A stretch of 64,000 bases of DNA from an uncultured Nitrospira sp. (GCA_902500715.1 CABVRO010000005.1:975-64974), one strand, 5' to 3'; positions 46,753-62,494 are shown, numbered from the stretch's first letter. Notes: generated by a model not told the origin, from the letters alone. Made by a program: numbers and translations.

Positions 46753-47328
46753 ATGATACGTTTGCGCCCGTTTGTCCTGCTCGGATTGCTTGCCGTCGCC
46801 GGCCCCTTGTTTCTTGACGGCTGCGCGAGCAAATCGGGAACCAGTGGAGGAGTGACGGCGACTCCACCGAAGCCCCGCGCGGAGGAGCGTGTGGCTGCGG
46901 CTCCGGTACAGGAAATCCCCGCCCCGCCGGAACCGGCTCCGGTGCCGTTGCGATCGGTGGAGATGGCCGCGCGGAATGCGACCGGGGAGCAGAACATTCC
47001 GTTCCCCGATGTGCTGTTCGATTTCGACCAATACGTTTTGCGGGACGATGCGCTCACTGCGGTGGAGGCCAATGCCAAGCGGTTGAAAGATAACCGGATC
47101 ACCAAGGTGTTGTTGGAAGGCCGTTGCGACGAAGTCGGGACCTCCGAATACAATCTGGTGTTGGGGGAACGGCGAGCCCTCTCCGTAAAACGGTATCTCG
47201 AATCGTTGGGCATGAGTCAGTTGCAGGTGGATCTCACCAGTTACGGAAAAGACCGGCCGTTGTGCCTCCAGCACAATCCGGTCTGCTGGCAGAAGAACCG
47301 CAGCGTCCATTTCGTGGTGAAAGAATAG
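46753..47328 (+). CDS. pal: Peptidoglycan-associated lipoprotein (Pal/OmpA family)
   Basis: Lipobox LDGC; FDFD, EGRCDEVGT.EYN..LGERRA, SYGK and NRSV motifs. Confidence 0.88.
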   Translation: MIRLRPFVLLGLLAVAGPLFLDGCASKSGTSGGVTATPPKPRAEERVAAAPVQEIPAPPEPAPVPLRSVEMAARNATGEQNIPFPDVLFDFDQYVLRDDALTAVEANAKRLKDNRITKVLLEGRCDEVGTSEYNLVLGERRALSVKRYLESLGMSQLQVDLTSYGKDRPLCLQHNPVCWQKNRSVHFVVKE

Positions 47329-47418: not shown

Positions 47419-47457
47419 GTAACAGAGAATTTACGGGAGCCTAACCATTCTGGAACG
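47419..47457 (+). promoter_or_regulatory. Pho-box-like 11-bp periodic repeats (GTAACA, TTTACG, CTAACC, GGAACG)
   Basis: Hexamers start at 47419, 47430, 47441 and 47452, upstream of the CBS gene. Confidence 0.45.
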
Positions 47458-47540
47458 TCACAGGAGTATCCTCCTTATTAGAACATCGGCAAGGTGAGAG
47501 ACAGCCGCCGATGACACACATTCAACAAGGAGGATACAGT

Positions 47541-47924
47541 ATGGTGACAGTCAGCGATCTCATGACGAAGAAACTGGTGACCGTACAGGCCGGCACTTCG
47601 GCGGCGGACGCAGCCAGAGTGATGAACGAGCGCCATGTCGGCAGCGTGTTTATCGAGCAGAACGACCGTGTGGTCGGCATCGTGACCGAGTCCGATATTG
47701 TGCGAAAGGTCGTGGGTGAAAACAGACCGGTGCATTTCGTTCCCGTGGAATCCATCATGAGCAGCCCTGTCATCAGTTTGGATGAGCGGCGTTCGATCAC
47801 GGAAGCGGCCGATCTCATGCAACATCACCATACGCGCCATCTGGGCGTGTTGAAGAGCGGCGCGATCGTCGGCGTGCTCTCGGTGCGCGATCTGCTCCAG
47901 CCGGTGTCGGTGGACGAGTTCTAA
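47541..47924 (+). CDS. Tandem CBS-domain protein
   Basis: VSDLMT, VGIVTESDI, IMSSPV and VGVLSVRDL motifs; AAGGAGG RBS. Confidence 0.92.
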   Translation: MVTVSDLMTKKLVTVQAGTSAADAARVMNERHVGSVFIEQNDRVVGIVTESDIVRKVVGENRPVHFVPVESIMSSPVISLDERRSITEAADLMQHHHTRHLGVLKSGAIVGVLSVRDLLQPVSVDEF

Positions 47925-48167
47925 CTCGCCACCCCATCGGGGCCTCGCCATCGGCGTCCGGCCGAGCCCCAACCGGATAGATTCTTCCCCTCGACAATCC
48001 CATCCTTCGGTTTCTCCCCTGCCTTGGCGGCATACTCCCCGCCTTTCTTTCCGTTCGGGTTCAGCATACCGGCGCCATGCACGTTCCCAGCGCAGTGAAT
48101 CGAAGGCGACCCGCGGCAGGCTCGGCGGTTCGGCGGTATGGCGAAATGGCGCGTGGAACGGCGAGAG

Positions 48168-48857
48168 TTAGGAAGATTGCAGTTTGTATCCGATGCCGCG
48201 AATCGTGACGACGAATCTTGGCTTGGAGGGATCCGCCTCGATTTTCTGACGGAGCGAGTGAATGTGGACATCCAGCGCATGTTCTTCGAGCGCGTAATCT
48301 TCTCCCCAGACCCGGTTGAGCAGATCTTGCCTCGACAGCACGACACCCGGTGAGAGAAGAAATTGATGGAGGATACGAAATTCCTTCGGTGTGAGTTCGA
48401 CGAGGGCTCCCCCAACCGTCACCTCATGGCGGGAGATATCCATCGTGAGGCCTTCGACGCGAAGAACGGATGGAGCCGCCGATGGCATGTTGTGGCGACG
48501 AAGGATCGCCCGAATATGCGCCAGTAGTTCGCGGGAGTGGGGAGAACAAAAGACGAGGTCGAAGCCGGCATCCAGCTCGGTGAGGCATTCATCCTGGCCG
48601 CAGGATTTGTCGAACGGCTGCAGCACGATGATGGGGATCGCAGGAGGAAACTGATCCCGGCGTCCTCCCTCCGTGGCAAGGATCTGCCGATCCAACAAAA
48701 TCAACATTGGAGGCCGTCGCCGGATCTCGCTCAGTGCGGCGGCCAATGTCGTCGACACCCAGGCACGATAACCGTTCAGCTCGAGCAGTTTCTCCAAAGA
48801 GCCGGTGGCAGTCCGGTCGGCGCTCACCAGAAGAATCGTCTTTTCCAAGTCGGTCAT
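48168..48857 (-). CDS. OmpR/PhoB-family regulator with degenerate receiver domain
   Basis: Canonical winged helix (LTPKEF, SRQDLLNRVWG, LDVHIHSLRQKIE, TIRGIGYK). The receiver lacks most of the acidic pocket, the switch Thr and the conserved Lys. Confidence 0.85.
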   Translation of the reverse strand: MTDLEKTILLVSADRTATGSLEKLLELNGYRAWVSTTLAAALSEIRRRPPMLILLDRQILATEGGRRDQFPPAIPIIVLQPFDKSCGQDECLTELDAGFDLVFCSPHSRELLAHIRAILRRHNMPSAAPSVLRVEGLTMDISRHEVTVGGALVELTPKEFRILHQFLLSPGVVLSRQDLLNRVWGEDYALEEHALDVHIHSLRQKIEADPSKPRFVVTIRGIGYKLQSS

Positions 48858-48970
48858 GCGGCTGAACCCTCCTCTCGAGGATGCACTATGGCGTCGGGAG
48901 ATTGTTGAGCGGTCATCGACATGTTACGTGCGTGTAAATTTTATTGCCGGTCGACGGGCCTCAGCGGCTG

Positions 48971-49009
48971 TTTACAAAGACTTAACCAGTCGGTGACAGT
49001 GCTGTCACG
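48971..49009 (+). promoter_or_regulatory. Pho-box-like repeats upstream of the porin (TTTACA, TTAACC, GTGACA, GTCACG)
   Basis: Hexamers start at 48971, 48982, 48993 and 49004, an exact 11-bp period. Confidence 0.7.
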
Positions 49010-49115
49010 AAGCGGACCGATAGTGCGCCCGTGAAATCATCCGGTTTTATCATCTGTACTGTGGGCCGCGATGATGGGCCGATCGGTACAAGCATCACAC
49101 TATGAGGAGGCTTGA

Positions 49116-50627
49116 ATGAAGTACGGGGGGATGTGTGTCTTGAAATGGTCTGCCGCGACGCTCGGCATCGCCGGCGCGCTCCTATTCTTGCCGCTGCAGG
49201 CATCGGCGGGCGCGAACGAGGCCGCGCCGATGGTAGTAGCCCAGGGGCCCTTTCAATCCAGCCAGGCGCTCTCCGCCATGGAGACGGTCCCGCAGGCGAT
49301 ACCCACTGCGAATAGTACCGACCGAGAAACATCGGGTCAGCGGCTCTCGATCGAGAGCACCTCGCTCGAAAGCCTGTTGCTCGAGAAAGGCGTGATCACG
49401 CAGGAAGACTGGATCCGTCTCAAGGCCGAGGAAGAACGTCGGGTGTTCGAACAGTCGTCGGAATTGCAGATGTCCGGTAATCCGCGCTGGTACGAACGGA
49501 TCCGCATGACCGGGTACATCCAATACAAGTACAATATGGCGGCCACGAATCGCCTGTTCGACAATCCTCTGGGCGACAGCTTCGGCGACCAGCAGGGCAA
49601 TGAATTTTACATCCGCCGGATGCGGCTGGTGTTCCAGGGGCAAGTGTCGGAACGGGTGGCCTTCTTCATGCAGTTCGCGCTCGAAGGTGGGCAACAGACG
49701 CCGGCAAACAATGAAATGATCGACGCCATGGTGGATTACTACCTCACCAAGGACAAGGTGCACCGCTTCCGCTTCGGTCTCCAACGCGTGCCCAACGCAT
49801 TCGATACCTACCGGTCGAGCACAAACCGGCAGGAAATGGACCGGCACGAATCCATTCAGAGCGGCGCGCCGGGTGAACGCGATCTGGGCGTGGCCTACTA
49901 CTGGAGTCCGAAGGTCGCCCAGGAGCGGTTTACTCAACTGGCCGCGTATCACAACGGGCCCGGCGACTATGGCGTGTTCGGGATCATGGTCTACAACGGA
50001 CAAGGCAGGAGCCGGTTGGAGTTAAACAAGGATAAACATATCGGCGCCAAACTCTCCTATCCCTTCCAATTCCGGAACGGTCGGCTGCTCGAAGCCGGTG
50101 TGCTCGGCTACCATGGCGTGTTTTCCGTACAGGGAGCCAGTCAGCCTACGGTCGCCAGTGCTGCCCGCTGTCTCAGCACCCTGACCTCGGAAAGCGGCTG
50201 CGATATCAAGGATCAGCGAATCACGGCCTATGTCTGGACCCCGCCGCAACCTTGGGGAATCTTGGCCGAGTTCACCGTGGGGCGTGGACCGAAACGGAAT
50301 GCGCAGACCAACTTCATCGAAGAGAGCAACGTCGTCGGCGGATATGTGCAAGGCTACTATACCTGGCGTTACTCGGATGTCGGCATGTTGACGCCCTATG
50401 TGCGCTACGGTGAATACTACGGCGGTTTCAAAGCGATCAACGGGGCACCGGACGGCCAATCCCGCACCTGGAATATCGGTCTGGTATGGGAGCCGGATAC
50501 GCATTTCAGAGTGGTGGCGGAGTGGATGTCCAAGGACGGTTTGAACAGCACACTGGTCGCGAACCGTGCCCAAAACGACTTCGACGCCTCGCAGATGCGA
50601 TTCATGACGCAATGGTTCTGGAACTAA
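49116..50627 (+). CDS. Outer-membrane porin, OprO/OprP (phosphate-selective)-like
   Basis: Signal peptide, IRRMRL.FQG, D..VDY, beta-barrel alternation with aromatic C-terminus (QWFWN); Pho-island context. Confidence 0.78.
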   Translation: MKYGGMCVLKWSAATLGIAGALLFLPLQASAGANEAAPMVVAQGPFQSSQALSAMETVPQAIPTANSTDRETSGQRLSIESTSLESLLLEKGVITQEDWIRLKAEEERRVFEQSSELQMSGNPRWYERIRMTGYIQYKYNMAATNRLFDNPLGDSFGDQQGNEFYIRRMRLVFQGQVSERVAFFMQFALEGGQQTPANNEMIDAMVDYYLTKDKVHRFRFGLQRVPNAFDTYRSSTNRQEMDRHESIQSGAPGERDLGVAYYWSPKVAQERFTQLAAYHNGPGDYGVFGIMVYNGQGRSRLELNKDKHIGAKLSYPFQFRNGRLLEAGVLGYHGVFSVQGASQPTVASAARCLSTLTSESGCDIKDQRITAYVWTPPQPWGILAEFTVGRGPKRNAQTNFIEESNVVGGYVQGYYTWRYSDVGMLTPYVRYGEYYGGFKAINGAPDGQSRTWNIGLVWEPDTHFRVVAEWMSKDGLNSTLVANRAQNDFDASQMRFMTQWFWN

Positions 50628-50643
50628 CGAGAGCCTAGTCTGT

Positions 50644-50679
50644 GGCGGGCGTCCGGAGTTTATGTCCAGGACGCCCGCC
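50644..50679 (+). terminator. GC-rich hairpin after the porin
   Basis: GGCGGGCGTCC / GGACGCCCGCC 11-bp stem with no clear U-tract. Confidence 0.45.
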
Positions 50680-50718
50680 TCACTACTCGTCTAGCCCGCC
50701 AGGGGCCTTCTCGACATC

Positions 50719-50796
50719 CGTGAATCGTGAAGCGTATCTCGCGAGGATCCTCACCCGTGCTGTCACGCGAAATGAACGACGCTTCACGAACGACGG
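50719..50796. repeat. Palindromic intergenic repeat, family C
   Basis: TCGTGAAGCGT / ACGCTTCACGA stem. The 21-mer TGAATCGTGAAGCGTATCTCG (50721-50741) recurs exactly at 61674-61694. Confidence 0.6.
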
Positions 50797-51026
50797 GTGA
50801 TGAGGGTAGCCGACTAGCCCACGACCATTGTCTTCACATCAATAATCTCGTCCCCGCTCTTCACGAACACATCCCTTACAGACACCGACAGGCCGTTGCG
50901 ACAAACCGGCTTGCCGGCGGACGAGCTCGCCTGGCCTAGCCTCAACAGCCGACCTGACGCAGGCCTTGGCCTCTCGGCGCTCCGCCTCCGGCTATGAGCA
51001 ACGATTCCATTCGTCACAGGATGCGG

Positions 51027-51067
51027 GCCGCCAACCGACGAGACGTGTTGGCTTCTCGGTTGGCGGC
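51027..51067. terminator. Hairpin downstream of the lipoprotein gene
   Basis: GCCGCCAACCGA / TCGGTTGGCGGC 12-bp stem. Confidence 0.45.
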
Positions 51068-51090
51068 ATGATTCTAAGATCTGAAACGAA

Positions 51091-51786
51091 TTACTGTGTT
51101 GAATGTACGGCCGAGGATTTGGGCTCGGCGGACAGCCGCCGGAGGTCGATGGCGAGAATGCGGCCTTCGTCGATATAGGGCCAGGAGGGTCGTTTATCGG
51201 CTGCGGCCAGAGCCGAAGGCTGCGCGAATTCAAGTCGAAAACTTGTGCGCGCAATCGGAACGAGCGGACTGTCGATCGGATCAAAATCCGTCACCATGTT
51301 TTGGTTCATGCCATCGGTGGGGAGCGTCCGATCGTTGGCGAGGACAACCATCAGATACCCGTCCTGGACGAACATCCCGCCGGACGTGATGGCCAGCCCG
51401 GTGTTGTTGTCGGAAAAACGACGGTAAAACGTCACCAGTTCATCGGGCTTGGCTTCAGTCAGCGCCCGGCTGAGTCTCGGGGCCAAGACCTGGATTTCAG
51501 TGGATGCAAAGGCGAGCTTGGGGCTAGCCTGTCCCGAGATCAAGGACCCGATGAATCCGGATCGCGGAAAGACACGCAGGCCGCCCAGCACCTGCGCCAT
51601 CTGTTCCGGGGAGATGTCGGCCGGGTGCTGATGGCTGGATCGCGCACGGTCATCCACGTACAGCCGGATCGCGGTGATGGGATCTTGATACGAGGTGCGT
51701 GGCGGCGGCGGCGTGGTGCAGCCGAAGTGGGCCGCGGCGGCAAGGAGCAAGGGGAGGATGACGGTTCGACGCAACATGGGATCCAT
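51091..51786 (-). CDS. Lipoprotein of unknown function
   Basis: Lipobox-like HFGC after a hydrophobic stretch; GGAG RBS before ATG 51786. Confidence 0.75.
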   Translation of the reverse strand: MDPMLRRTVILPLLLAAAAHFGCTTPPPPRTSYQDPITAIRLYVDDRARSSHQHPADISPEQMAQVLGGLRVFPRSGFIGSLISGQASPKLAFASTEIQVLAPRLSRALTEAKPDELVTFYRRFSDNNTGLAITSGGMFVQDGYLMVVLANDRTLPTDGMNQNMVTDFDPIDSPLVPIARTSFRLEFAQPSALAAADKRPSWPYIDEGRILAIDLRRLSAEPKSSAVHSTQ

Positions 51787-51867
51787 TCCTGTTCTCCAGT
51801 CTCTGGTTCGTGGGAACGCATGATCGGTGGTCACGAACATCGGGGGCCGAATCGCGCGCATCATACC

Positions 51868-51911
51868 AAAAAAAACAGAAAAGGGAGCGCCTTTTGCACC
51901 AGGCGCTCCCT
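51868..51911 (-). terminator. Intrinsic terminator of the PstS paralog
   Basis: On the minus strand: AGGGAGCGCC...GGCGCTCCCT followed by TTTCTGTTTTTTT. Confidence 0.8.
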
Positions 51912-51948
51912 GTCCGTTCCCTCGTCGCAGATGCGATGGAAAAGGGGG

Positions 51949-53109
51949 TTACCGTATTCGTTGTTCGGCGACCTGCAGGTCCTGAGGTGGGACGGTGACC
52001 ATCGCTCCTTTGTCCAGCCCCAGCTCCTGGCGATTCTTCGCCACCTGCGTCGAGGTCAGCGGATAGAAGTTCGCCCGCGCCACGGTTTCCTGTCCCTGGC
52101 GGCTGTTCACAAAGGCCAGAAACTCTTCCACGACCGGATCCAGTTTGTCCTTCGGGCCCTTCTTCACATAGAGGTACAACGAACGGCCCAACGGATAGGC
52201 ACCGGAGGTGACGGTCTCGATCGACGGCAACAGGGCCGGTCCTTCGGGCTGGGCGGCAATGGGCACCTGGCGTACGGCTGAAATGTCGAAACCGGCGCCG
52301 GCATAGCCCAGACCAAGCGGGTCTTGGGCGATCGCAATGATCTCCGAAGCCGAGCCCGGTTGTTCGACCACGTCGTCCACGAGTTCCCCGTCCTTCAGGG
52401 CGACATGTTTAAAAAACTCCCTGGTGCCGGAGCGCTTGTCTCGCCCGTACAGGTGAACCGGCTGTTTGGCCAGCGCGGAGTTGCCCATTCCGATTTGACT
52501 CCAATTGGTGATGGGGTCAAGGCCGCGTTTATGATCTTTTCCGAAAATAGCATCCACTTCCGCCAAGGTCAGGCGCTGAAGAGGGTTGTCCTTGTTCACA
52601 TAGATCGCGACTGCATCCATGGCGATAGGTACTTCCAAGGGGCGATAGCCATAATTGGATTCGAAGCCCTTGGATTCATCTTCCGTCAACTGCCGGGAAG
52701 AGGCCAGCAATTCAACCGTAGTGGATCCGGCCGTGCCCCTGCCTTGAACCTTGTCTCCCCGCCGTTGATAGGACAGGCCCAGCAAAAACTCGCGGATGGC
52801 GGCGCTCGACCCGGTTCCCTCGACCGCAATCTGCGCGGCTGGGTGGAGACTGGAGAACTGCGCCGCGAGCTTTGCAATCAGCGGTCGCATGGTGTCCGAC
52901 CCGGCGATGCTCAGTTTCCCCTGGAGGCCGTTATGGTTCACATAGGGCTCGATCGCGGGGTCTACGCTGGGGCTTCCGCCGCCGCTCAATCCCGCGCGCT
53001 CCGCGCGGACCTGAGAGCCCGTCAGGATCAGCATGGCGGCAGCTGCCGCCGCGACCCACGCTTGCGCTCTCGGTCGGTGATGGGAACCTGTCTGCTGCAC
53101 GTGTGCCAT
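51949..53109 (-). CDS. PstS-family phosphate-binding protein paralog
   Basis: GSDT, GSS, SSR, A.DA.AI.VNKDNP, YGR..RSGT and YPL.R.LYLYV motifs. Confidence 0.88.
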   Translation of the reverse strand: MAHVQQTGSHHRPRAQAWVAAAAAAMLILTGSQVRAERAGLSGGGSPSVDPAIEPYVNHNGLQGKLSIAGSDTMRPLIAKLAAQFSSLHPAAQIAVEGTGSSAAIREFLLGLSYQRRGDKVQGRGTAGSTTVELLASSRQLTEDESKGFESNYGYRPLEVPIAMDAVAIYVNKDNPLQRLTLAEVDAIFGKDHKRGLDPITNWSQIGMGNSALAKQPVHLYGRDKRSGTREFFKHVALKDGELVDDVVEQPGSASEIIAIAQDPLGLGYAGAGFDISAVRQVPIAAQPEGPALLPSIETVTSGAYPLGRSLYLYVKKGPKDKLDPVVEEFLAFVNSRQGQETVARANFYPLTSTQVAKNRQELGLDKGAMVTVPPQDLQVAEQRIR

Positions 53110-53225
53110 GTGATGCCTCCGTATGAGTTGTGGATGTCCCGAATGACTGTCGATACCTGTCGTTATCGTGATCGATCGAACCTATTTGAATGTCTCGGAG
53201 GATACGCCGGGCCAATTGCTGCGCT

Positions 53226-53258
53226 ATTAGCGGCTCGTTAACTCCGTGTTAACTCTTC
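53226..53258 (-). promoter_or_regulatory. Pho-box-like repeats (GTTAAC, GTTAAC, GCTAAT) between the divergent PstS paralog and the sORF-psiE unit
   Basis: Exact 11-bp period. The 12-mer GAAGAGTTAACA is identical to one upstream of pstS. Confidence 0.72.
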
Positions 53259-53377
53259 CCGTGCAGCCCGTTCCGAAGAAGTAACCGTCCCGTAATCGGC
53301 CTCTAAGCTGTCTGGAACAGTGGGGTTCTAGACTGTGAGGCGAGAGTGAAGGCGATGGTTCATCAAGGAGGTGCCCG

Positions 53378-53497
53378 ATGCTTTCTGATTTGTTGATGGT
53401 GCCGGTCTCCACCAACGGTACGTTTCTCTTCACGATGCTGCTCCTGGTCGGGCTGTTTGCAGGGTTGTGGTCCGCGATGATCAGGAACGGGTGGTGA
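53378..53497 (+). CDS. Small single-transmembrane protein, 39 aa (MLSDLLMVPVSTNGTFLFTMLLLVGLFAGLWSAMIRNGW)
   Basis: AAGGAGG RBS and one hydrophobic helix; directly upstream of the psiE-like gene. Below the ORF-track cutoff. Confidence 0.62.
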   Translation: MLSDLLMVPVSTNGTFLFTMLLLVGLFAGLWSAMIRNGW

Positions 53498-53546
53498 CAT
53501 TCAGGTCGAAGACCATTTCGGTCGGACAGGAAAGGAATACGAACGC

Positions 53547-54056
53547 ATGACTTACTTTGAGGTCCAGCCACGCATCGGTCGGGTCAACGGTTTCATCGAT
53601 CGGCTCCTGGACACCGATCTCACCGAACTCTGGACGAAGGGAATCAAGGCAGTCCTCAGTCTGCTTATTCTGACCATCCTCATGGCGCTCACCGGCGGGG
53701 TCGTCAAAACGTTTCTGGATATCGGACTGCTGCTGCATGCTCCGGTGGAGATCGGGCTCCGGCAGATCATCGTCGATACGTTGATCCTGCTCGCCGTGGT
53801 GGAGGTGTTCAAAACCACGCTGACCTATTTTTCGGAAGGTCGCGTCAAGGTCACCTTCATCGTCGATACCATCCTCGTGGTCATGCTGACGGAAATCATT
53901 TCTCTCTGGTTCAAGGATGCAGACCACATGAAGTTGCTCTCGCTCGGAGCCATTCTCCTCGCGCTCGGGGCGATCCGGGTGGTGGCGGTGCGTTGTTCGC
54001 CGGCGCAGGGCGACGGAACCGGGAGAGGATTCTTCTGCAGCCGCGAAGAAATGTAG
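53547..54056 (+). CDS. Phosphate-starvation-inducible PsiE family membrane protein
   Basis: Four TM helices with L.LLAVVEVFKT..YF..GRV.V pattern; Pho-island context. Confidence 0.8.
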   Translation: MTYFEVQPRIGRVNGFIDRLLDTDLTELWTKGIKAVLSLLILTILMALTGGVVKTFLDIGLLLHAPVEIGLRQIIVDTLILLAVVEVFKTTLTYFSEGRVKVTFIVDTILVVMLTEIISLWFKDADHMKLLSLGAILLALGAIRVVAVRCSPAQGDGTGRGFFCSREEM

Positions 54057-54079
54057 CGGCGAGATGATCCCACAAGCGA

Positions 54080-54107
54080 GTTAACGGAAAATTGAAGTGA
54101 GGTTAAG
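54080..54107 (+). promoter_or_regulatory. Pho-box-like repeats (GTTAAC, ATTGAA, GTTAAG)
   Basis: Hexamers start at 54080, 54091 and 54102. Confidence 0.5.
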
Positions 54108-54217
54108 TTCAGAGATACACGAGTTCCTCATACTGATTCCTGTCTCTGCTCGTTCGATCCACGGTTGCCCGGGTCTGCGAATCGGGTTAGTGAATCAATC
54201 CAACCAGGAGGCGCGCC

Positions 54218-54457
54218 ATGGTGCATCCAGACATTTCCCCCACCAGCGAAGGTCTGATTCTCGATCTCTTAGGCCTGCGAAAGTCACTAACGCTTGAACA
54301 GGTCGTGACCCTGCTGCCGGAGCTCAGTTGGAACCAGGTTTTTAAGACCGTCGACGAGCTGAGCCGGCGCGGAGAGATCATCCTGATTCGAAGGGGCTTC
54401 GAGTACGAGATCGAACGGATATCGTCGAAGGCGCGGGTCTTAGCCTGCGCCGGCTGA
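54218..54457 (+). CDS. Small hypothetical protein, possible winged helix
   Basis: AGGAGG RBS. LTLEQVVTLLPELSWNQVF..VD.LSR.G.I.L is HTH-plus-wing-like (inference). Confidence 0.7.
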   Translation: MVHPDISPTSEGLILDLLGLRKSLTLEQVVTLLPELSWNQVFKTVDELSRRGEIILIRRGFEYEIERISSKARVLACAG

Positions 54458-54566
54458 TCCTTGTGTGGCGGGTCTCAGGCGACACCCTGAGAGAGCCTGT
54501 CCCTGCCTGGTGGTCGTGGGTGAATGCCGCAGCGTTCCGAGTGAGGCGGTCGTCCGGCCGGAAGTC

Positions 54567-55271
54567 TCAGGTTGGCCTCGGATGGGCCAGGAAGCGATAA
54601 CGAGACCCCGGCAGAATCTCAATCGATCCCGTCCCGCTGTTCTCCAGCTTTCGTCGAAGAAAGCGCACACGGTGCTCCAGTTCTTCTCTGCTTGTGCTCC
54701 TGAACTCCTCGCCTGGAAGCTTCAGCAATTCATCGCCGCGCACTAATTCCCCATCCCGAGTCAGCTGATACTGAAGCAGCTTCAATTCGGTGTTCGAAAC
54801 GGTGAGTTGTCGTTTCTGCAAGGTCAGGACGAAGTAAGGCCCTTCCATTGTGATGGAGGTATCGGAAAAGAGCACAGGATCCTCACGACGTGTCTCATGG
54901 ACTCTGCGCAGCACGGCCTGAACGCGGGACACGACTTCCCTCGGGCTGAACGGCTTCACCACATAGTCGTCTGCTCCCATTTCAAGGCCGGCAATACGGT
55001 CTGCTTCAGTTCCGACGGCCGTGAGCATGATGATCGGGATATGGCGCGTAGACGGTGTGCGTCGGACTAATCGGCAAACCTCATGGCCGCTCAGACCCGG
55101 TAGCATGAGGTCGAGCAGAATCAACGAAGGCCGCAATCGCTGCGCGTCACGCCATCCGCTCTCACCATCCGCGGCAAGCGTCGTCGCGAATTGGGCCTGG
55201 CGCAACGCGCGGTCCAGGAGGTCGGCGTGGAGCGGCTCGTCTTCGATGATTTGGACGATCGAAGAACCCAT
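54567..55271 (-). CDS. OmpR/PhoB-family response regulator with intact receiver and diverged DNA-binding domain
   Basis: IIEDE, LLDLMLPGLSG, MLTA, GADDYVVKPF receiver motifs; C-terminal wHTH recognisable but atypical. Confidence 0.88.
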   Translation of the reverse strand: MGSSIVQIIEDEPLHADLLDRALRQAQFATTLAADGESGWRDAQRLRPSLILLDLMLPGLSGHEVCRLVRRTPSTRHIPIIMLTAVGTEADRIAGLEMGADDYVVKPFSPREVVSRVQAVLRRVHETRREDPVLFSDTSITMEGPYFVLTLQKRQLTVSNTELKLLQYQLTRDGELVRGDELLKLPGEEFRSTSREELEHRVRFLRRKLENSGTGSIEILPGSRYRFLAHPRPT

Positions 55272-55759
55272 AGCGACGGACCCTACAGTTGACCCGTTTC
55301 AGCTTCCTCAAGGCCGCATTGCGAAGATGTTACTTCGATAGCCACAGACCCGGCACTTCAGCCGTAGCGCGTACGGCTGCTTCGCAACTGTCCAGGAATG
55401 GTCCGATGTAACCGGATGTTAAAGAAACGGTGAGTCTCATGAAATGTCACGCTCCTATGCTGGCCTCCCAACATGGAGGAGAGCGAGTTGTTTTCATGGA
55501 GCCATAGTCGGACGCCCCTGCCCTCGGAGCAAGGCAGCGCCAACCTTACTCTTACGGTCTTGGGTCCGTTCATGACGATTCACCTCGTGAGCGCCGGATC
55601 AGGCGCGCCTTCTGACCTTGCGCAGGCCAACGAGTCCGCACGAGCCGATCCCCTGTAAGGACAGCCAGAGGACCGGCAAGACTGCAACACAGAGTCTTGG
55701 GCTCAGTCGTGGCACCATCGGCTGCTCAGCACAACCAGCAGCCGGAGCCCCATGTCGCA

Positions 55760-55782
55760 GAAGAGTTAACAGCTATTTAATA
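55760..55782 (+). promoter_or_regulatory. Pho-box-like repeats upstream of pstS (TTAACA-N5-TTAATA)
   Basis: Hexamers at 55766 and 55777; shares GAAGAGTTAACA with the 53247-53258 site. Confidence 0.72.
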
Positions 55783-55845
55783 GAGTAGCGATCTCGCTGA
55801 AATCGTCGGTTCCTACATTGTAGCTCCCGACAGGAGGGAGACCAT

Positions 55846-56865
55846 ATGCGTCCCGAGTCGAGTACCGTTCGTGAATCGGAAAGCTGGCATCCGCTGACGA
55901 CCGTCCTCGTGTTTTCGATTCTCTATGCGCTGATCGTGATGCCGGCCGCCTGCGCCGGACAAGCGAACGGCGCCGACACCACGTTACGACCCTATCAAAA
56001 GGTCAGCGGCGTGTCCGGGACGATCAACAGCATCGGTTCCGACACCTTGAACAACTTGATTACGTTGTGGGCCGAAGGATTCCGGAAACAATATCCCAAT
56101 GTGAAAATTCAAGTCGAGGGGAAGGGGTCCAGCACGGCGCCGCCTGCGCTCATTGAAAACACGGCTCAACTCGGTCCCATGTCGCGGACGATGAAGTCGA
56201 GCGAGATCGACGCATTCGAAACGAAGTTCGGGTACCCGCCGACTGCCTACCCTGTCGCGGTGGATGCCTTGGCGCTCTTCGTCAATAAGGACAATCCGAT
56301 CAAGGGACTCACGGTTACAGAGGTGGACGCGCTGTTTTCCAAATCCCGGAGGCAGGGCCATGCGGTCGAACTGATCAAGTGGGGACAACTCGGATTGACC
56401 GGAGACTGGGCCGCTGCGCCTGTCAGTCTCTATGGCCGCAATTCTGCTTCCGGCACATACGGATTTTTCAAGGAACATGCACTCAAGAATGGCGACTTCA
56501 AGGATCAGGTGAAGGAACAACCCGGCTCTGCCTCGGTGGTGCAAGGGATCAGCGAAGATCGATACGGCATCGGGTACAGCGGGATCGGCTACACCACGTC
56601 CGGGGTGAAAATGCTTCCGCTGGCGGCGAAGGCCGGCCAACCATTGATCGAACCCACCCAGGCGAATACGCGGAACGGCACCTATCCGCTCTGGCGATAC
56701 TTGTACATCTACGTGAATCAGGCTCCGGGAAAACCCCTCTCGCCCATCGTGAAAGAGTTTCTGGCCTACGTGTACAGCAGGGAGGGGCAAGCTGACGTGC
56801 TGAGGGACGGCTACTTCCCGGTCGATGCCATCTTGGCTGAGAAGCAGCTGAGCCAGATCCGGTAA
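55846..56865 (+). CDS. pstS: Phosphate ABC transporter substrate-binding protein
   Basis: GSDTL, GKGSSTAPPAL, PMSR, YGRNSASGTY, QPGSASVVQ and GYSGIGY motifs. Confidence 0.95.
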   Translation: MRPESSTVRESESWHPLTTVLVFSILYALIVMPAACAGQANGADTTLRPYQKVSGVSGTINSIGSDTLNNLITLWAEGFRKQYPNVKIQVEGKGSSTAPPALIENTAQLGPMSRTMKSSEIDAFETKFGYPPTAYPVAVDALALFVNKDNPIKGLTVTEVDALFSKSRRQGHAVELIKWGQLGLTGDWAAAPVSLYGRNSASGTYGFFKEHALKNGDFKDQVKEQPGSASVVQGISEDRYGIGYSGIGYTTSGVKMLPLAAKAGQPLIEPTQANTRNGTYPLWRYLYIYVNQAPGKPLSPIVKEFLAYVYSREGQADVLRDGYFPVDAILAEKQLSQIR

Positions 56866-59093
56866 TGCTCACGGAGCGATTCCGACCCATGCTGAGGCCT
56901 ATGCATCTCCGAACATTGTTCGATCGGCTTGCCCGGGTCATTATTACCGTCGGTGGGCTCGCGACCATCGTCAGCATTCTCGGGATCTTCTTCTTTCTGT
57001 TTCGCGAAGTCACCCCGTTGTTCACCGCGCCGAGCGCGAAGTTGACTCAACGCTTGAGTGTGCCTGCCCTCCTTGTGGACGAAGGTCCGGCTCAGGTGGC
57101 GGTCGATGAACATCGTGAGATTGCGCAGGTGTTCACCTCAGGAGCCATTCAGTTCTTCGATCTGGCATCGGGACAACCCATCCCGTTGGAGATGCCGGCA
57201 CAGGTCGTGGGCCGCCAGATCACGGCAATGGCGTCCGGAGGCGGCAATGCTCAGCGGTTGGCCGTGGGCACAGCCGATGGCGAAATCCTGCTCTTGAAAG
57301 TCGGCACCACGACGGAATTTACCGATCGAGGCGAGCGGCGCAAGCGTCCGCACATTCGCGCCGGCCAACCTATTCCACTGACGAAAAGCCCTATCGTCCG
57401 GCTGGCCTACCGGGCCAACGATCAAGGAAGTCTGCTGGCCCTCGTGTCGAAGGGCGGCCGGCTGCTCGTCGTGCGCATCGCGGCGGATGACGTGACGGGC
57501 CAACATCCCGTCGTCACGGAACTGCCGCAACCGAGAGGTGCGGTGACGGCTCTCGCCCTGGATGCGTTGCTTGAAAATCTGTATGTGGGAACGGCGGACG
57601 GACAGGTGGTGCATGTCGCTTTGTCTGAAACAGAACCGCCGGAGATGAGGGCCGCCTATACGATCGCTGCACCTTCGACGGCCGTCACGGCGTTGGGGTT
57701 CCTGAGCGGCGATCGCAGCCTGGTGGTCATGTCCGAGGACGGTGCGGTTTCGACCTGGGGACTTGTGCGACGCGCCGATGCCCCCTCCGGTTGGACCCTG
57801 ACCCAGATCCATACCCTCCGCGCTCACAATGCGCCGGTCACTGCATTTGCTCCGTCGCAACGGGTCAAGGGTTTTGTCACCGGCGATAGGAAGGGCAATC
57901 TGTTCCTGCACCATGCGACCTCTTCTCAAACGTTGTTGCGACTGGCCACCAGCGAATTTCCGATCCGCGCCGTGGCGTTCGCGCCGAAAGGCGACGGGTT
58001 GATCGCGTTGGACGGGGCCGGGCAACTGTCTCTGTACCAGGTGCAGAATGCCTATCCTGAAGTGACGCTCGAGACCTTGTTCGGCAAGGTCTGGTACGAG
58101 GGGTACGATCAGCCGGCCCATGTGTGGCAATCCTCCTCCGGGTCGGATGATGTCGAGCCGAAGCTCGGTCTGCTTCCGCTGGCATTCGGAACGCTCAAAG
58201 GGACGATGTACGCCCTGTTTCTCGCCGTGCCGATTGCCATTCTGGCGGCGATGTGCACCTCTCAGTTCATGCAACAGGACCTGCGCGCAAAAATTAAACC
58301 GATTATTGAAGTCATGGCCGCGTTGCCGACCGTGGTGCTCGGTTTCCTTGCCGGGCTCTGGCTGGCTCCCCTCCTTGAGCGAATGCTTCCCGCGGTGGCC
58401 GGCATGGCGCTGGTGTTGCCTCTGCTGGTTGTCGGGGCCTCGTTCGCCTGGTACCTTTGTCCGTTGTCCGCGAAACGACACCTCCCGCAGGGCCAAGAAG
58501 CCTTGCTGCTGATCCCACTCCTGGGACTGGGCATCGTCGGGTGCCTCTGGGCCAATTCCTTGATCGAAGGCTGGTGGTTCGACGGGAATGTGAAGGCCTG
58601 GCTCTCAAGCCGTCTCGGCATCCAATACGATCAGCGCAACGCCCTGATCGTCGGCATCGTGATGGGATTTGCCATCGTCCCGGTGATCTACAGCATTGCC
58701 GAAGAAGCGCTCTCCAATGTGCCGAAGATACAAATCGCCGGCTCGCTCGCGTTGGGAGCGACTCGTTGGCAAACCGTTCTGCATCTGGTGCTGTTGTCCG
58801 CCAGCCCGGGAATCTTTTCCGCCGTGATGATCGGGTTCGGGCGCGCGATCGGGGAAACCATGATCGTCCTGATGGCCACAGGGAATACTCCCATTCTGGA
58901 TTGGAACTGGGCGAACGGCTTTCGGACGCTGTCGGCCAATATCGCCGTGGAAATTCCGGAAGCCCCGCATGGCGGCACTCTCTATCGAGTGTTATTCCTG
59001 GCCGCCTTGCTCTTGTTCATCGTCACGTTTGTCATCAACTCGCTGGCCGAACTCGTTCGTCAGCGGCTCCGGGACAAGTACAGCCATGGGTGA
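56865..59093 (+). CDS. pstC: Phosphate ABC transporter permease with large N-terminal WD40-like extra domain
   Basis: GTLKG, EVMAALPTVVLG, GSLALGATRW, GRAIGETM and RTLSANIAVE motifs; beta-propeller-like repeats in the N-terminal half. Confidence 0.9.
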   Translation: MLTERFRPMLRPMHLRTLFDRLARVIITVGGLATIVSILGIFFFLFREVTPLFTAPSAKLTQRLSVPALLVDEGPAQVAVDEHREIAQVFTSGAIQFFDLASGQPIPLEMPAQVVGRQITAMASGGGNAQRLAVGTADGEILLLKVGTTTEFTDRGERRKRPHIRAGQPIPLTKSPIVRLAYRANDQGSLLALVSKGGRLLVVRIAADDVTGQHPVVTELPQPRGAVTALALDALLENLYVGTADGQVVHVALSETEPPEMRAAYTIAAPSTAVTALGFLSGDRSLVVMSEDGAVSTWGLVRRADAPSGWTLTQIHTLRAHNAPVTAFAPSQRVKGFVTGDRKGNLFLHHATSSQTLLRLATSEFPIRAVAFAPKGDGLIALDGAGQLSLYQVQNAYPEVTLETLFGKVWYEGYDQPAHVWQSSSGSDDVEPKLGLLPLAFGTLKGTMYALFLAVPIAILAAMCTSQFMQQDLRAKIKPIIEVMAALPTVVLGFLAGLWLAPLLERMLPAVAGMALVLPLLVVGASFAWYLCPLSAKRHLPQGQEALLLIPLLGLGIVGCLWANSLIEGWWFDGNVKAWLSSRLGIQYDQRNALIVGIVMGFAIVPVIYSIAEEALSNVPKIQIAGSLALGATRWQTVLHLVLLSASPGIFSAVMIGFGRAIGETMIVLMATGNTPILDWNWANGFRTLSANIAVEIPEAPHGGTLYRVLFLAALLLFIVTFVINSLAELVRQRLRDKYSHG

Positions 59094-60735
59094 ACGGTCG
59101 ACGCTCATGAAGGATTTCTGGCGGGGCGGAGAATTATTCGTCTGGATGACGGCCTCCGGTGTGGCGCTCAGCCTGATGATGGTGGCCGGCATGCTGGGAC
59201 TGATTATGATCAACGGCCTGGGGCAATTCTGGCCCGCTGCCTTGCAGGAGACGACGCTGAAGACGCAGGAGACAGTGATCGGTCAGGTGGTGGGAGAAGA
59301 AGTCATCCCCAATTCGATCACGCCGGACTCGCCTGCCGGACAGCGACGGTGTCGGTATCGCGTCGGCAATCGGGATCAGTTCGGGTCCGAATATCGTTGG
59401 ATCAATGCCGCGGACATTGTGTCGAGCGCGCGCCCCGAGGATCTCACGCTTGTCGAGCGGCGTGAGTGGGGGCCTGCCTTTGGTCGAATCACGGTCGGCG
59501 TGGAGGGGGCTGCGACAGGAAGCGCAAGCGGGAGTTCATGGACGACGGTGAAGACGCTGGTGGAGCGGGCCAATCAGTTACGTCGGCGCATCGAACATCT
59601 GGAGCGAGAGGAAATCGGCTCCATCAACTATCGGATTGAGAAGGCCAGGCTTGCCCGGCACGCGTTGACGCTGAACGGTCGACTCGCCCCCGCCGATGCC
59701 GAGAAAGACCAACGGCTTCTCGATCAGATGACTGCGTTGGAGCGAGACTATCTCGTCAAGACTGAGGCGCTTGAGCGGCTGCACAAGGAGGCCGGGCAGG
59801 AAGTCCTGTTTTTGACCCTCTCCACCGGCCGGTCGGTGCGGCTCTCTCTCGATCAGGTGTTGGCCGTCAGTCGGCCGAACGGGATGCACTGGGGTGAGAA
59901 ACTCCTGGCCTATGTCCGGAATCTGTGGCTGTTTGTTTCCAGCGAACCCCGTGAAGCGAACACGGAGGGCGGGATTTTTCCGGCGATCTTCGGCACAGTG
60001 TTGATGGTGTTTCTGATGACCCTGGCGGTGATGCCGTTCGGTGTCATGGCTGCCGTCTATTTGCGGGAGTATGCGAATCAAGGTCTGCTGGTCAGGCTGG
60101 TACGGATCGCGGTCAATAATCTGGCCGGTGTGCCGTCCATCGTCTTCGGGGTGTTCGGCCTCGCCTTTTTTGTCTATGCGCTGGGTGGCACGATCGACCA
60201 CTGGTTGTTTCCTGAGGCGCTCCCGAATCCCACCTTCGGCACGGGCGGCATCCTGTGGGCGTCTTTGACCCTGGCGCTGCTCACCGTCCCGGTCGTGATC
60301 GTGGCGACAGAGGAGGGACTCTCTGCGGTCCCGCGCGACTTTCGCGAAGGTTCGCTCGGACTGGGCGCGACCAAATTTGAAACACTCCGGCATGTGATCC
60401 TCCCCTGCGCGTTGCCGGGAATTTTGACGGGACTGATCCTGGCCATGGCAAGGGCCGCCGGGGAAGTGGCGCCCCTGATGTTGACCGGGGTGGTGAAATT
60501 GGCCCCTGCCCTTCCGTTGGACGAATACCTTCCCTTTCTGCATCTCGATCGAAAGTTCATGCACTTGGGATTCCATATTTACGACGTCGGGTTTCAGTCC
60601 CCGAACGTCGAGGCGGCCAAACCGATGGTCTATATGACCACGCTGATTCTGATCCTCGTGGTGGTATCGCTGAATTGGACGGCCGTGCGCCTGCGCAATC
60701 GTTTGCGGAGGCGTTTTGCCGCATCGGCCGTGTGA
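59086..60735 (+). CDS. pstA: Phosphate ABC transporter permease with coiled-coil insert
   Basis: REANTEGGIFPAIFGT, NLAGVPSIVFG, LGATK and ARAAGEVAPL motifs; the ATG overlaps the pstC end. Confidence 0.92.
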   Translation: MGERSTLMKDFWRGGELFVWMTASGVALSLMMVAGMLGLIMINGLGQFWPAALQETTLKTQETVIGQVVGEEVIPNSITPDSPAGQRRCRYRVGNRDQFGSEYRWINAADIVSSARPEDLTLVERREWGPAFGRITVGVEGAATGSASGSSWTTVKTLVERANQLRRRIEHLEREEIGSINYRIEKARLARHALTLNGRLAPADAEKDQRLLDQMTALERDYLVKTEALERLHKEAGQEVLFLTLSTGRSVRLSLDQVLAVSRPNGMHWGEKLLAYVRNLWLFVSSEPREANTEGGIFPAIFGTVLMVFLMTLAVMPFGVMAAVYLREYANQGLLVRLVRIAVNNLAGVPSIVFGVFGLAFFVYALGGTIDHWLFPEALPNPTFGTGGILWASLTLALLTVPVVIVATEEGLSAVPRDFREGSLGLGATKFETLRHVILPCALPGILTGLILAMARAAGEVAPLMLTGVVKLAPALPLDEYLPFLHLDRKFMHLGFHIYDVGFQSPNVEAAKPMVYMTTLILILVVVSLNWTAVRLRNRLRRRFAASAV

Positions 60736-60753
60736 TCACAGAAAGGACTGCGC

Positions 60754-61617
60754 ATGGATATCCAGATTCCTAGTCTGTCGCCGACGACGCCGGCATTGTC
60801 ACTGCGTCCGACCGTTCCCCAACCGCGTCTCACTCGTCCCCACGTGGCGCACGGAACTTCCGTCGATGCAAAAGTGCTGGTCCGCAATCTCGACTTCTAC
60901 TATGGCCAACGACAGGCCCTCTTTCGGGTCTCACTGACGGTCCGGACCCATTCGGTCACCTCCTTCATCGGCCCGTCGGGGTGCGGAAAATCCACGTTGC
61001 TGCGATGTCTGAACCGGATGAACGATCTGGTAGAAGGGGCGCGCGCGGTGGGGCGTGTGGAACTGGACGGTGTGGACATCTACGACCCCGCCATCGACGT
61101 CACCGATCTCAGGAAGCGTGTGGGGATGGTCTTTCAGAAATCGAACCCGTTTCCCAAATCGATCTACGACAATGTCGCGTATGGTCCGCGTCTGCACGGC
61201 ACCAAGGATAAGCGGTCTCTGGATGAACTCGTGCAGCATAGTCTGCAGGGCGCCGGACTCTGGGATGAGGTGAAGGACCGGTTGATGCAAAGCGCCCTGG
61301 GATTGTCCGGTGGACAACAACAGCGGTTGTGCATCGCGCGCGCGCTGGCGGTCCAGCCCGACGTCATCCTGATGGATGAGCCCTGTTCGGCCCTGGATCC
61401 CATCGCGACCGGCAAGATCGAAGAACTCATCTATACCTTGAAGAATACCTACACCGTGGTGATCGTGACGCACAACATGCAGCAGGCCGCGCGCGTGTCG
61501 GATCAATGCGGATTTTTTCTGATGGGTGAACTGGTAGAATTCGGCGATACGAAGACGATCTTTACGACTCCGCACGATAAACGAACGGAAGACTACATCA
61601 CCGGACGGTTCGGATAA
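60754..61617 (+). CDS. pstB: Phosphate ABC transporter ATP-binding protein
   Basis: [37 protein letters not shown] and YITGRFG motifs. Confidence 0.97.
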
Positions 61618-61619
61618 CC

Positions 61620-61810
61620 TGTCAGGATGTTGAAAACGAACGCAATGCGGCTCTCTCGTCACGTGCGGATCCATGAATCGTGAAGCGTATCTCGTCGTCG
61701 TCAGAGCGTATGGCCCGTGGCGCAGGGCTGAGAAGCGAGACGCCGACTCTCGATTTCCGGCCTACACGGTAAGTTATATGCCATGAGCTCTCACTGCGGA
61801 CGCCTGCTAG
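61620..61810. repeat. Composite/degenerate intergenic repeat between pstB and phoU
   Basis: Begins CAGGATGTTGAAAAC (family-B TIR-like), contains the family-C 21-mer at 61674, and ends CCTGCTAG (reverse complement CTAGCAGG, the family-B end). Confidence 0.5.
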
Positions 61811-61825
61811 AGAAGGAGCCCGACC

Positions 61826-62494
61826 ATGCAACGACATTTCGATCAAGACCTCGCGCACCTCAAGCAGACCTTGCTCCGTATGGGCGGGCTCGTCGAATCG
61901 CAGATTCAACAGGCCCTGCAGGCGTTGGTGGATCGGGATTCCGATCTGGCAGTCGATGTCATCAAACAGGACCACGATGTCAACGCGTTGGATGTCGAGA
62001 TCGACGAACTCTGCATCCAGTTGCTGGCGCTGCAACAGCCGACGGCCCGCGATTTGCGGTTCGTGACGACGGGGATGAAAATTTCGTCCGAACTGGAACG
62101 GATGGGCGATCTGGCCGACAACATCGCTCAGCGTGCCCTGGAGCTGAACGGCGAGCCGCAGCTGAAGCCCTACATCGACATTCCGCGCATGGCCAATTGG
62201 ACGATGCGTATGGTCAAGGACTGTCTGGATGCCTTCGTAAACTCCGATCCGGTGCTGGCGCGGAAGGTGTGTGCCGACGACGACTTTGTCGATGAGGTGA
62301 ACGAGCAGTTGTTTCGAGAACTGCTCTCCTTTATGCTGGAAGACACGCGGACCATTACCCGCGCGATCCGGCTCACCTTCGTGGCGAAGTCGCTCGAACG
62401 GATTGCCGATCATGCCACCAATATTGCGGAACTTGTCGTCTACATGGTTGAAGGCAAGAACATCCGGCACGTAGCCCCCTCTGCGAGCGTGTAG
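61826..62494 (+). CDS. phoU: Phosphate transport regulator PhoU
   Basis: QQPTARDLR, ELERMGD, D..VD and LERIADHATNIAE motifs; AAGGAG RBS. Confidence 0.96.
   Translation: MQRHFDQDLAHLKQTLLRMGGLVESQIQQALQALVDRDSDLAVDVIKQDHDVNALDVEIDELCIQLLALQQPTARDLRFVTTGMKISSELERMGDLADNIAQRALELNGEPQLKPYIDIPRMANWTMRMVKDCLDAFVNSDPVLARKVCADDDFVDEVNEQLFRELLSFMLEDTRTITRAIRLTFVAKSLERIADHATNIAELVVYMVEGKNIRHVAPSASV

Follow-up and report, generated by a model that had tools for sequence, protein, structure and literature searches.

Phased 11-bp repeats at phosphate-gene promoters of Nitrospira resemble PhoB-type operators

A phosphate island with nine repeat-bearing promoters

We analysed a stretch of 64,000 nucleotides (nt) from an uncultured Nitrospira sp. 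(GCA_902500715.1 CABVRO010000005.1:975-64974), in the following called the window, in which promoters of phosphate-related genes carry arrays of short repeats at 11-bp phase. The region is a phosphate island of a lineage I Nitrospira, the relatives of which include Ca. Nitrospira defluvii FP929003.1, and its gene content is typical of a Pho regulon, Pfam assigning two PstS proteins, Porin_O_P, PsiE, PhoU and Ppx (Table 1). Located among these genes are a stand-alone CBS-pair protein, an OmpR/PhoB-family protein (RR1), a response regulator with a degenerate winged-helix output domain (RR2), a small winged-helix protein of 79 amino acids (aa) and a hydrophobic short open reading frame (sORF) of 39 aa. 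The gene for the PstS paralogue (PstS2) and that for the 257-aa protein downstream of it probably form one operon (51091-53109, minus strand), as synteny in relatives suggests. In Pfam the 79-aa and 257-aa proteins and the two proteins encoded at the C173 sites described below matched no family, and the same holds for NCBIfam, which was run on the 79-aa and 257-aa proteins only.

Nine promoters in the window contain four TTAACA-like hexamers at 11-bp phase, followed after exactly 9 nt by a TAnnnT -10 hexamer, with all repeats oriented toward the gene. The geometry is identical in all nine; eight of them were lined up from orthologue alignments, and the ninth, that of RR2 (55333, minus strand), was found by a matrix from whose building it had been left out. 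At the -35 position only 1-3 of 6 bases agree with TTGACA, and no usable -35 element is present. If the -10 hexamer is placed at -12 to -7, the repeats cover about -60 to -22 on the coding strand. Units 1 and 2 read (T/G)T(A/T)AC(A) and form a pair of high information content, whereas units 3 and 4 are weaker, reading nT(G/A)A and GnAA(C/T). Computed over 138 distinct sites, the information content is 1-2 bits at hexamer positions as compared to about 0.1 bit at each spacer position, and an A at position -1 of unit 1, outside the scored positions, is found in 73% of the sites. PHO boxes consist of 11-nt direct-repeat units with 6-7 conserved and 4-5 variable positions (PMC4415409, PMC2275107) and are followed after about 10 bp by a TAN3T -10 element (PMC1906773). 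The Nitrospira arrays agree with this description, being 11-bp direct repeats with four units where at least two are expected, a proximal unit about 10 bp before the -10 element, no functional -35 element and repeats that face the gene.

An original prediction, made from the sequence of the window, had described phased hexamers at the promoters of the CBS, porin, PstS2, 79-aa and pstS genes, and every one of them was found at its position. Those of PstS2, read on the minus strand, are GTTAAC at 53248-53253 and 53237-53242 and GCTAAT as the reverse complement of 53226-53231, and those of the 79-aa gene are GTTAAC at 54080, ATTGAA at 54091 and GTTAAG at 54102; the starts of the others are given in Table 1. 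All five promoters thus hold, but four had been overlooked, those of RR1, RR2 and the sORF-psiE pair and a distal array upstream of pstS, which brings the total to nine. The sORF-psiE pair had been thought to share the boxes of PstS2 and instead possesses its own array at 53281-53334, back to back with the PstS2 array. The element GAAGAGTTAACA, said to be identical before both pstS genes, occurs exactly twice in the 3.66-Mb genome, once before each of them. The palindrome GTTAAC is found 96 times in the genome, with 4 copies located within 53237-55770 (~2.5 kb).

The distal array, 385 nt upstream of pstS, looks like a relic promoter left behind by a deletion and now reading into pstS. In two close relatives (G019 and G030) it precedes genes for a DUF2934-like protein and a LuxR-type response regulator, both missing from the window, and in a third (G014) the DUF2934-like gene is kept after the distal array and the LuxR-type regulator is present only as a fragment. 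In the window the array is directly followed by a 61-aa open reading frame (ORF; 55473-55658), of which one stretch, LTLTVLGPFMTIHLVSAG, is similar to signal peptides of PstS from other Nitrospira, with 13 of 18 positions identical. The mRNA of RR2 is predicted to be leaderless, as the -10 hexamer ends 8 nt before the ATG. In the 5' leader of the porin gene (49025-49115) the blocks GTGAAATCATCCGG and TTTTATCATCTGTACTG, located 3' of the predicted start site, are kept among relatives; they could be a second control element or could just reflect recent common ancestry.

Table 1. Genes and repeat arrays of the window (positions counted from its first nucleotide) and the best non-training matrix hits elsewhere in the genome (handle and position). 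Numbers in brackets after hexamers are start positions; distances from the -10 hexamer to the start codon are those found in related loci.
Feature	Position	Strand	Hexamers and -10 element, or family match	Matrix score	-10 to start codon (nt)
OmpA-family gene	46753-47328	+			
CBS promoter	47419-47472	+	GTAACA (47419)-TTTACG (47430)-CTAACC (47441)-GGAACG (47452), 9 nt, TATCCT (47467-47472)	37.5	60-73
Stand-alone CBS-pair protein, 127 aa	47541-47924	+	Pfam CBS 9.2e-27		
RR1, OmpR/PhoB-family protein	48168-48857	-	Pfam Trans_reg_C only, 94 bits		
RR1 promoter	48885-48938	-	TTTACA-GTAACA-ATGACC-ACAATC, 9 nt, CATAGT	32.4	28-31
Porin promoter	48971-49024	+	TTTACA (48971)-TTAACC (48982)-GTGACA (48993)-GTCACG (49004), 9 nt, GATAGT	32.5	about 93
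Phosphate-selective porin O/P family protein	49116-50627	+	Pfam Porin_O_P 9.5e-20		
Conserved 257-aa protein	51091-51864	-	no family match		
PstS paralogue (PstS2)	51949-53109	-	Pfam PBP_like_2; TIGR02136 176 bits, below cut-off		
PstS2 promoter	53199-53252	-	TTAACA-TTAACG-CTAATA-GCAATT, 9 nt, TATCCT	40.1 (best in genome)	83-91
sORF-psiE promoter	53281-53334	+	GTAACC-GTAATC-CTAAGC-GGAACA, 9 nt, TAGACT	33.7	sORF 45-56; psiE 90-99
39-aa hydrophobic sORF	53378-53497	+			
psiE	53547-54056	+	Pfam PsiE		
79-aa gene promoter	54081-54134	+	TTAACG-TTGAAG-TTAAGT-GATACA, 9 nt, CATACT	32.5	76-90
79-aa winged-helix protein	54218-54457	+	no Pfam family		
RR2, response regulator	54567-55271	-	Pfam Response_reg 93 bits; Trans_reg_C 23.6 bits, below cut-off		
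RR2 promoter	55280-55333	-	GTAACA-GCAATG-TTGAGG-GAAACG, 9 nt, TAGGGT	23.0	9 in 16 of 17 relatives with a site, 8 in 1
Distal array	55408-55461	+	GTAACC-TTAAAG-GTGAGT-GAAATG, 9 nt, TATGCT	37.4	
Proximal pstS promoter	55766-55819	+	TTAACA (55766)-TTAATA (55777)-GCGATC-GAAATC, 9 nt, TACATT	34.9	
pstS-pstC-pstA-pstB-phoU-ppx, running past the window end	55846-64000	+	Pfam PBP_like_2, ABC_tran, PhoU, Ppx-GppA		
DksA/TraR zinc-finger gene just downstream of ppk1	C73:3547	-		28.6 bits	
372-aa protein without family	C173:1496	-		21.2 bits	
735-aa protein without family	C173:2265	+		20.4 bits	
PhoD	C24:3994	+		18.4 bits	
PiT transporter, 538 aa	C59:15400	+		18.3 bits	

Statistical weight, conservation and reach of the arrays

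A matrix of 30 positions, covering the four hexamers and the -10 element and ignoring the spacers, was trained on seven sites and the genome was scanned for the held-out eighth. Every held-out site ranked 8-13 among 7,294,008 genome positions, right behind the seven training sites. Control matrices that were mirrored, column-permuted or phased at 9, 10, 12 or 13 bp gave 0-3 hits at 18 bits or more and none at 25 bits or more, as compared to 14 and 9 hits with the real matrix. The repeated motif is real and more than a product of chance. In a scan with three hexamers an excess of the 11-bp spacing over spacings of 6-16 bp was present only at 18 bits or more and not at 12 or 15 bits; the three-unit, hexamer-only matrix was dropped as too unspecific and the composite of four units and -10 element was used in its place. 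Genome-wide, spacings of 7 and 14 bp between TTAAC-like hexamers are strongly overrepresented, chiefly in intergenic DNA, with 115 and 77 triple hits at 12 bits, respectively, vs 30-69 for other spacings, which suggests an unrelated family of 7-bp tandem repeats.

Orthologous promoters were aligned from ~20 genomes of the same genus, and overall the arrays are kept in about 20-35 other Nitrospira genomes. Conservation in the alignments is confined to the four hexamers and the TAnnnT element, the spacers drifting, and in 20 of 20 related loci the arrays recur at a nearly fixed distance from -10 element to start codon. The CBS array is present in 15/15 loci of the genus and, Nitrospira-wide, in 26/35 loci, some of them in lineage II, where identity of the CBS gene is no more than 61-64% and the spacers show no relationship. 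The porin array is kept in 9/10 loci and the PstS2 array in 8/9, with scores of 32-40 in relatives, the RR1 site occurs in all relatives that have the RR1 gene, and the separate sORF-psiE array is likewise kept. The pstS array is found in most of 29 loci, about 25 of them with a tandem TTAACA/TTTACA/GTAACA pair, and TTAACA-n5-TT(A/T)ACA lies about 100 nt 5' of the pstS ATG in most same-genus genomes. For the 79-aa gene the array is present in about 18 relatives with scores of 18-32, making it the least conserved one. The original prediction, which had been made to depend on such conservation, had ranked the CBS and 79-aa sites as the weakest; this is borne out for the latter, whereas the CBS site is among the strongest because it is kept in so many loci, lineage II included.

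Outside the window the matrix derived from the locus identified further candidate promoters as its best non-training hits in the whole genome (Table 1), with those of PiT, PhoD and the ppk1-adjacent DksA-type gene being among the 6 best. The array is kept in the orthologous promoters of PiT (9/9) and PhoD (4/4), in 11-14 loci for the C173 sites and in 17 of 19 promoters of the DksA-type gene, 15 of which score at least 12.8 bits. A local phosphate regulon with PHO-box-type 11-bp repeats, as had been proposed, is thus supported by the PhoB/PhoP-dependent promoter architecture, by conservation in orthologues and by the hits of the genome scan, and the retention of the arrays in the respective orthologous promoters supports the proposed inclusion of the CBS protein and the two tiny genes.

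Several of these genes adjoin each other in relatives. In complete genomes PiT, the 735-aa and 372-aa orphans, a HAD hydrolase, PhoD and DksA-type zinc-finger proteins are encoded within a few kb, the 735-aa gene lying 3-5 kb from PiT and in another relative near PhoD and a DksA-type gene. These genes, distributed here over C173, C59, C24 and C73, form a second phosphate island (G019:C1:2579387-2586294 and G025:C4:91826-103164 in relatives), most of whose genes have arrays. PhoD at C24:4269-5873 is split into ORFs of 81 and 421 aa, the orthologue in G006 being an open frame of 603 aa; this reflects either a frameshift or pseudogene or an assembly error. Small DUF2934-like proteins with the motif EKAxELYxxRG...DWLEAE adjoin Pho arrays twice, once beside PhoD (C24:5996-6406, minus strand, with a weak site of 14.2 bits at C24:6485) and once after the distal pstS array in relatives (L031 14054-14455). 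Finally, three units in perfect phase, TTAACG-TTAACA-TTAATC, readable on both strands, are located at C82:5952-5999 with a composite score of only 17.9. The surrounding gap of 860 nt, flanked by genes for an exonuclease III and a PilZ-domain protein, contains no convincing gene, and a small RNA or a small gene missed by annotation could be their target.

The two tiny genes of the window are real genes with conserved arrays. The 39-aa sORF is 50-97% identical in 9 relatives, in which the psiE promoter lies ~215-230 nt upstream. The 79-aa protein has 140 homologues, none with a Pfam domain, and every source name shown is Nitrospira. Its AlphaFold2 model (pLDDT 77) has an H-E-H-H-E-E topology and matches MarR, ArsR and DprA winged helices in Foldseek with a TM of about 0.7, which, on the strength of the model, makes it a winged-helix protein restricted to Nitrospira.

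Candidate regulators and reading of the arrays

The genome's best PhoB match is encoded at C12:22516-23187, and the best PhoR match follows directly downstream. Among NCBIfam models this PhoB fits TIGR02154 (PhoB) best, and among solved structures the mycobacterial phosphate regulator RegX3 is closest to it, ahead of the B. subtilis PhoP receiver. Next to the phoB-phoR pair (C12:18996-23208) lie a DUF47/PhoU-like gene and another PiT gene, which is short (330 aa). RR1 and RR2 are not PhoB equivalogs, scoring 129 and 167 bits, respectively, with TIGR02154 (cut-off 296.2 bits). RR1 has a degenerate receiver, the positions of the acidic pair, the Thr and the Lys being lost. Its winged helix is intact, but the recognition helix is altered (EHALDVHIHSL vs TRTVDVHVRRL in C12 PhoB), differing at 5 of 11 aligned positions. 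The helix of C12 PhoB probably matches that of E. coli PhoB. Four of the five positions changed in RR1 are presumably DNA-contacting residues, going by the E. coli helix and the complex of Blanco 2002. RR2 retains all receiver residues, and its output domain is decayed, bears insertions and falls below the Pfam cut-off. The defects of RR1 and RR2 are complementary, and both genes have Pho arrays of their own.

In other families of the same order, here f2, f3 and f4, the presence of the motif follows that of PhoB. In f2 strong arrays (19-31 bits) lie upstream of pstS in 10/10 loci. In f3 the array is directly upstream of pstS in 4 of 6 loci, two of them at only 12-13 bits, and the other two loci have strong arrays elsewhere in the locus. 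A PhoB orthologue is present in both families and is the only nearby regulator in these loci. In f4 neither the motif, in 0 of 4 loci with pstS, nor a PhoB orthologue was found. Identity of PhoB is 90-99% within the genus; it drops to 67-72% for most of f3, with 55% in its genus g8, and to 49-55% in f2, whereas RR1 was found in the genus only. These phyletic patterns indicate that motif and PhoB travel together and that RR1 is dispensable for the motif.

Given the motif, its geometry and statistical weight, its conservation, the gene content and the co-occurrence with PhoB, we read the arrays as PhoB-type operators of the phosphate-starvation response, to which we assign a probability of about 0.8. 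If this is right, the binder is probably PhoB on C12. The promoters would then be sigma-70-type and activator-dependent with PHO-box operators. Phosphate limitation would cause the kinase PhoR to phosphorylate C12 PhoB, and two phosphorylated PhoB dimers would bind head to tail and cooperatively on units 1-2 and 3-4, on one face of the helix, with units 1-2 probably nucleating binding. The promoter-proximal dimer would replace the -35 element, contact region 4 of sigma-70 and recruit RNA polymerase. Binding by PhoB, activation rather than repression and phosphate as the signal are what we infer from sequence. Predicted targets in the window are pstSCAB-phoU-ppx, the PstS2 operon, the O/P porin, sORF-psiE, the CBS-pair protein, the 79-aa protein, RR1 and RR2; outside it they would comprise PiT, PhoD, the ppk1-adjacent DksA-type zinc-finger gene and the two genes without family.

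Several observations weigh against this reading. The leave-one-out scores of three of the eight sites, those of the 79-aa gene (18.7), the porin (20.8) and RR1 (20.9), fall within the range of the control maxima, so that these sites rest on their conservation, and hits at 18-21 bits generally overlap the control range. The sites of the matrix were picked after the alignments had been seen, which the leave-one-out test and conservation mitigate and do not remove. C12 PhoB and PhoR stay below the NCBIfam equivalog cut-offs (233.7 vs 296.2 and 315.7 vs 334.2 bits, respectively). No strong array precedes C12 phoB, only irregular weak xTCAC repeats being present and no matrix hit of 13 or more, and phoB-phoR therefore seems not to be autoregulated. 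As three OmpR-family paralogues coexist, only the phyletic pattern and the sequence of the helix point to the binder. Moreover, no Nitrospira Pho box, phosphate regulon or phosphate-limitation transcriptome was found in the literature searched.

The coexistence of paralogues raises the question of whether the arrays are bound mainly by RR1, which would act through its pseudo-receiver independently of phosphorylation, as the true regulator, a competitor or a co-activator, and make the island an RR1 regulon. The winged-helix domain of RR1 scores well (94 bits), its gene lies inside the island, divergent from the porin gene and with its own array, and a receiver that has lost the acidic pair, Thr and Lys could leave the protein constitutively active once made. 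However, RR1 is absent from f2 and f3, where the same array still precedes pstS, its recognition helix departs from that of PhoB, and it evolves fast (45-96% identity within the genus), as opposed to a near-constant motif and PhoB, so that we consider this explanation improbable.

We regard it as very unlikely that the repeats are those of a regulator or promoter class without a link to phosphate, such as a general-stress OmpR-family regulator or an alternative sigma factor, and are merely frequent near pst. The link of the arrays to phosphate is indeed inferential, and the CBS, winged-helix, DksA-type and family-less proteins have no obvious role in phosphate metabolism. Yet nearly all recognisable targets are textbook Pho genes (pstS twice, porin O/P, psiE, pit and phoD, with phoU-ppx downstream), an array of four phased repeats that stops 9 nt short of a TAnnnT -10 element is unlike the -35 element of a sigma factor, and presence and absence of the motif track PhoB. 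Nor do the phased hexamers arise by chance from A+T-rich intergenic DNA in a genome of 59% G+C. Single TTAAC-like hexamers are expected in A+T-rich spacers, and the missing 11-bp excess of the hexamer-only scan at low thresholds would fit such an origin, but it is refuted by the leave-one-out ranks, the control matrices, the fixed geometry and the conservation over dozens of genomes with drifting spacers.

With the arrays taken as PhoB-type operators, a further and more tentative idea, which we think is rather unlikely to hold, is that the Nitrospira Pho regulon contains its own second tier of regulators, RR1, RR2 and the 79-aa protein being switched on by PhoB and forming a feed-forward and feedback circuit. 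Such a circuit would time or limit the starvation response and reach genes without Pho boxes, and RR2, made from a leaderless mRNA, might serve as a phosphate sink for PhoR.

In wastewater plants, drinking-water filters and soils nitrite is oxidised mainly by Nitrospira, whose regulation is hardly known because they grow slowly and have no genetic system. The matrix and the fixed geometry provide a regulon that is ready for testing, with transcription start sites predicted to within a few bases. In the window they would be expected 6-8 nt past the -10 hexamers, at about 47479, 49031, 53341, 54141, 55468 and 55826 on the plus strand and 48878, 53192 and 55273 on the minus strand. The matrix and the geometry would also place several proteins without known function in the context of phosphate starvation, namely the CBS-pair protein, the 79-aa winged helix, the 39-aa membrane peptide, the DksA-type zinc finger and the orphans of 372 and 735 aa.

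Comparison with known PHO boxes

The Nitrospira arrays resemble the PhoB boxes of E. coli pstS and phoA, which also have 11-bp units ending ~10 bp before a TAN3T -10 element, replace the -35 element and occur as two boxes at strong promoters. They differ in the core, which is CTGTCAT in E. coli and TTAACA in Nitrospira, and E. coli phoBR is autoregulated, whereas Nitrospira phoB has no strong array in front of it.

The sequence itself resembles the box of Bacillus subtilis PhoP, which recognises the hexamer TT(A/T/C)ACA in four repeats of 11-bp period. In the promoters activated by PhoP, which have no -35 element, these repeats are on the coding strand and extend from about -60 to -20. The core binding region of PhoP was reportedly defined by Liu and Hulett in 1998, a study cited in PMC6232261 and PMC2275107. 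The Bacillus hexamer is essentially the TTAACA/TTTACA/GTAACA of Nitrospira, and both systems have four repeats at 11 bp. In Nitrospira, which belongs to the phylum Nitrospirota, units 3 and 4 are nevertheless more degenerate, and the regulator is nearer to the PhoB model and RegX3.

A likeness also exists to the cyanobacterial box of SphR. In Synechocystis it has the consensus CTTAACCT, with 8-bp direct repeats and a 3-bp linker that give an 11-bp period, and at least three tandem repeats are required (PMC1906773). Predicted sites such as GTTAATCTtcaGTTAACCTaaaTTTATATT (PMC1906773) are near-identical in look to the Nitrospira PstS2 array. The Nitrospira box differs in having four units at a strictly fixed distance to the -10 element and in preferring A over C at position 6. 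The proposal that the box is lineage-specific does not hold, as it matches both Bacillus TT(A/T/C)ACA and the cyanobacterial consensus and occurs in other families of the order. The type of switch is itself a textbook one, and what the arrays outline is a predicted set of phosphate-starvation genes for nitrite-oxidising bacteria.

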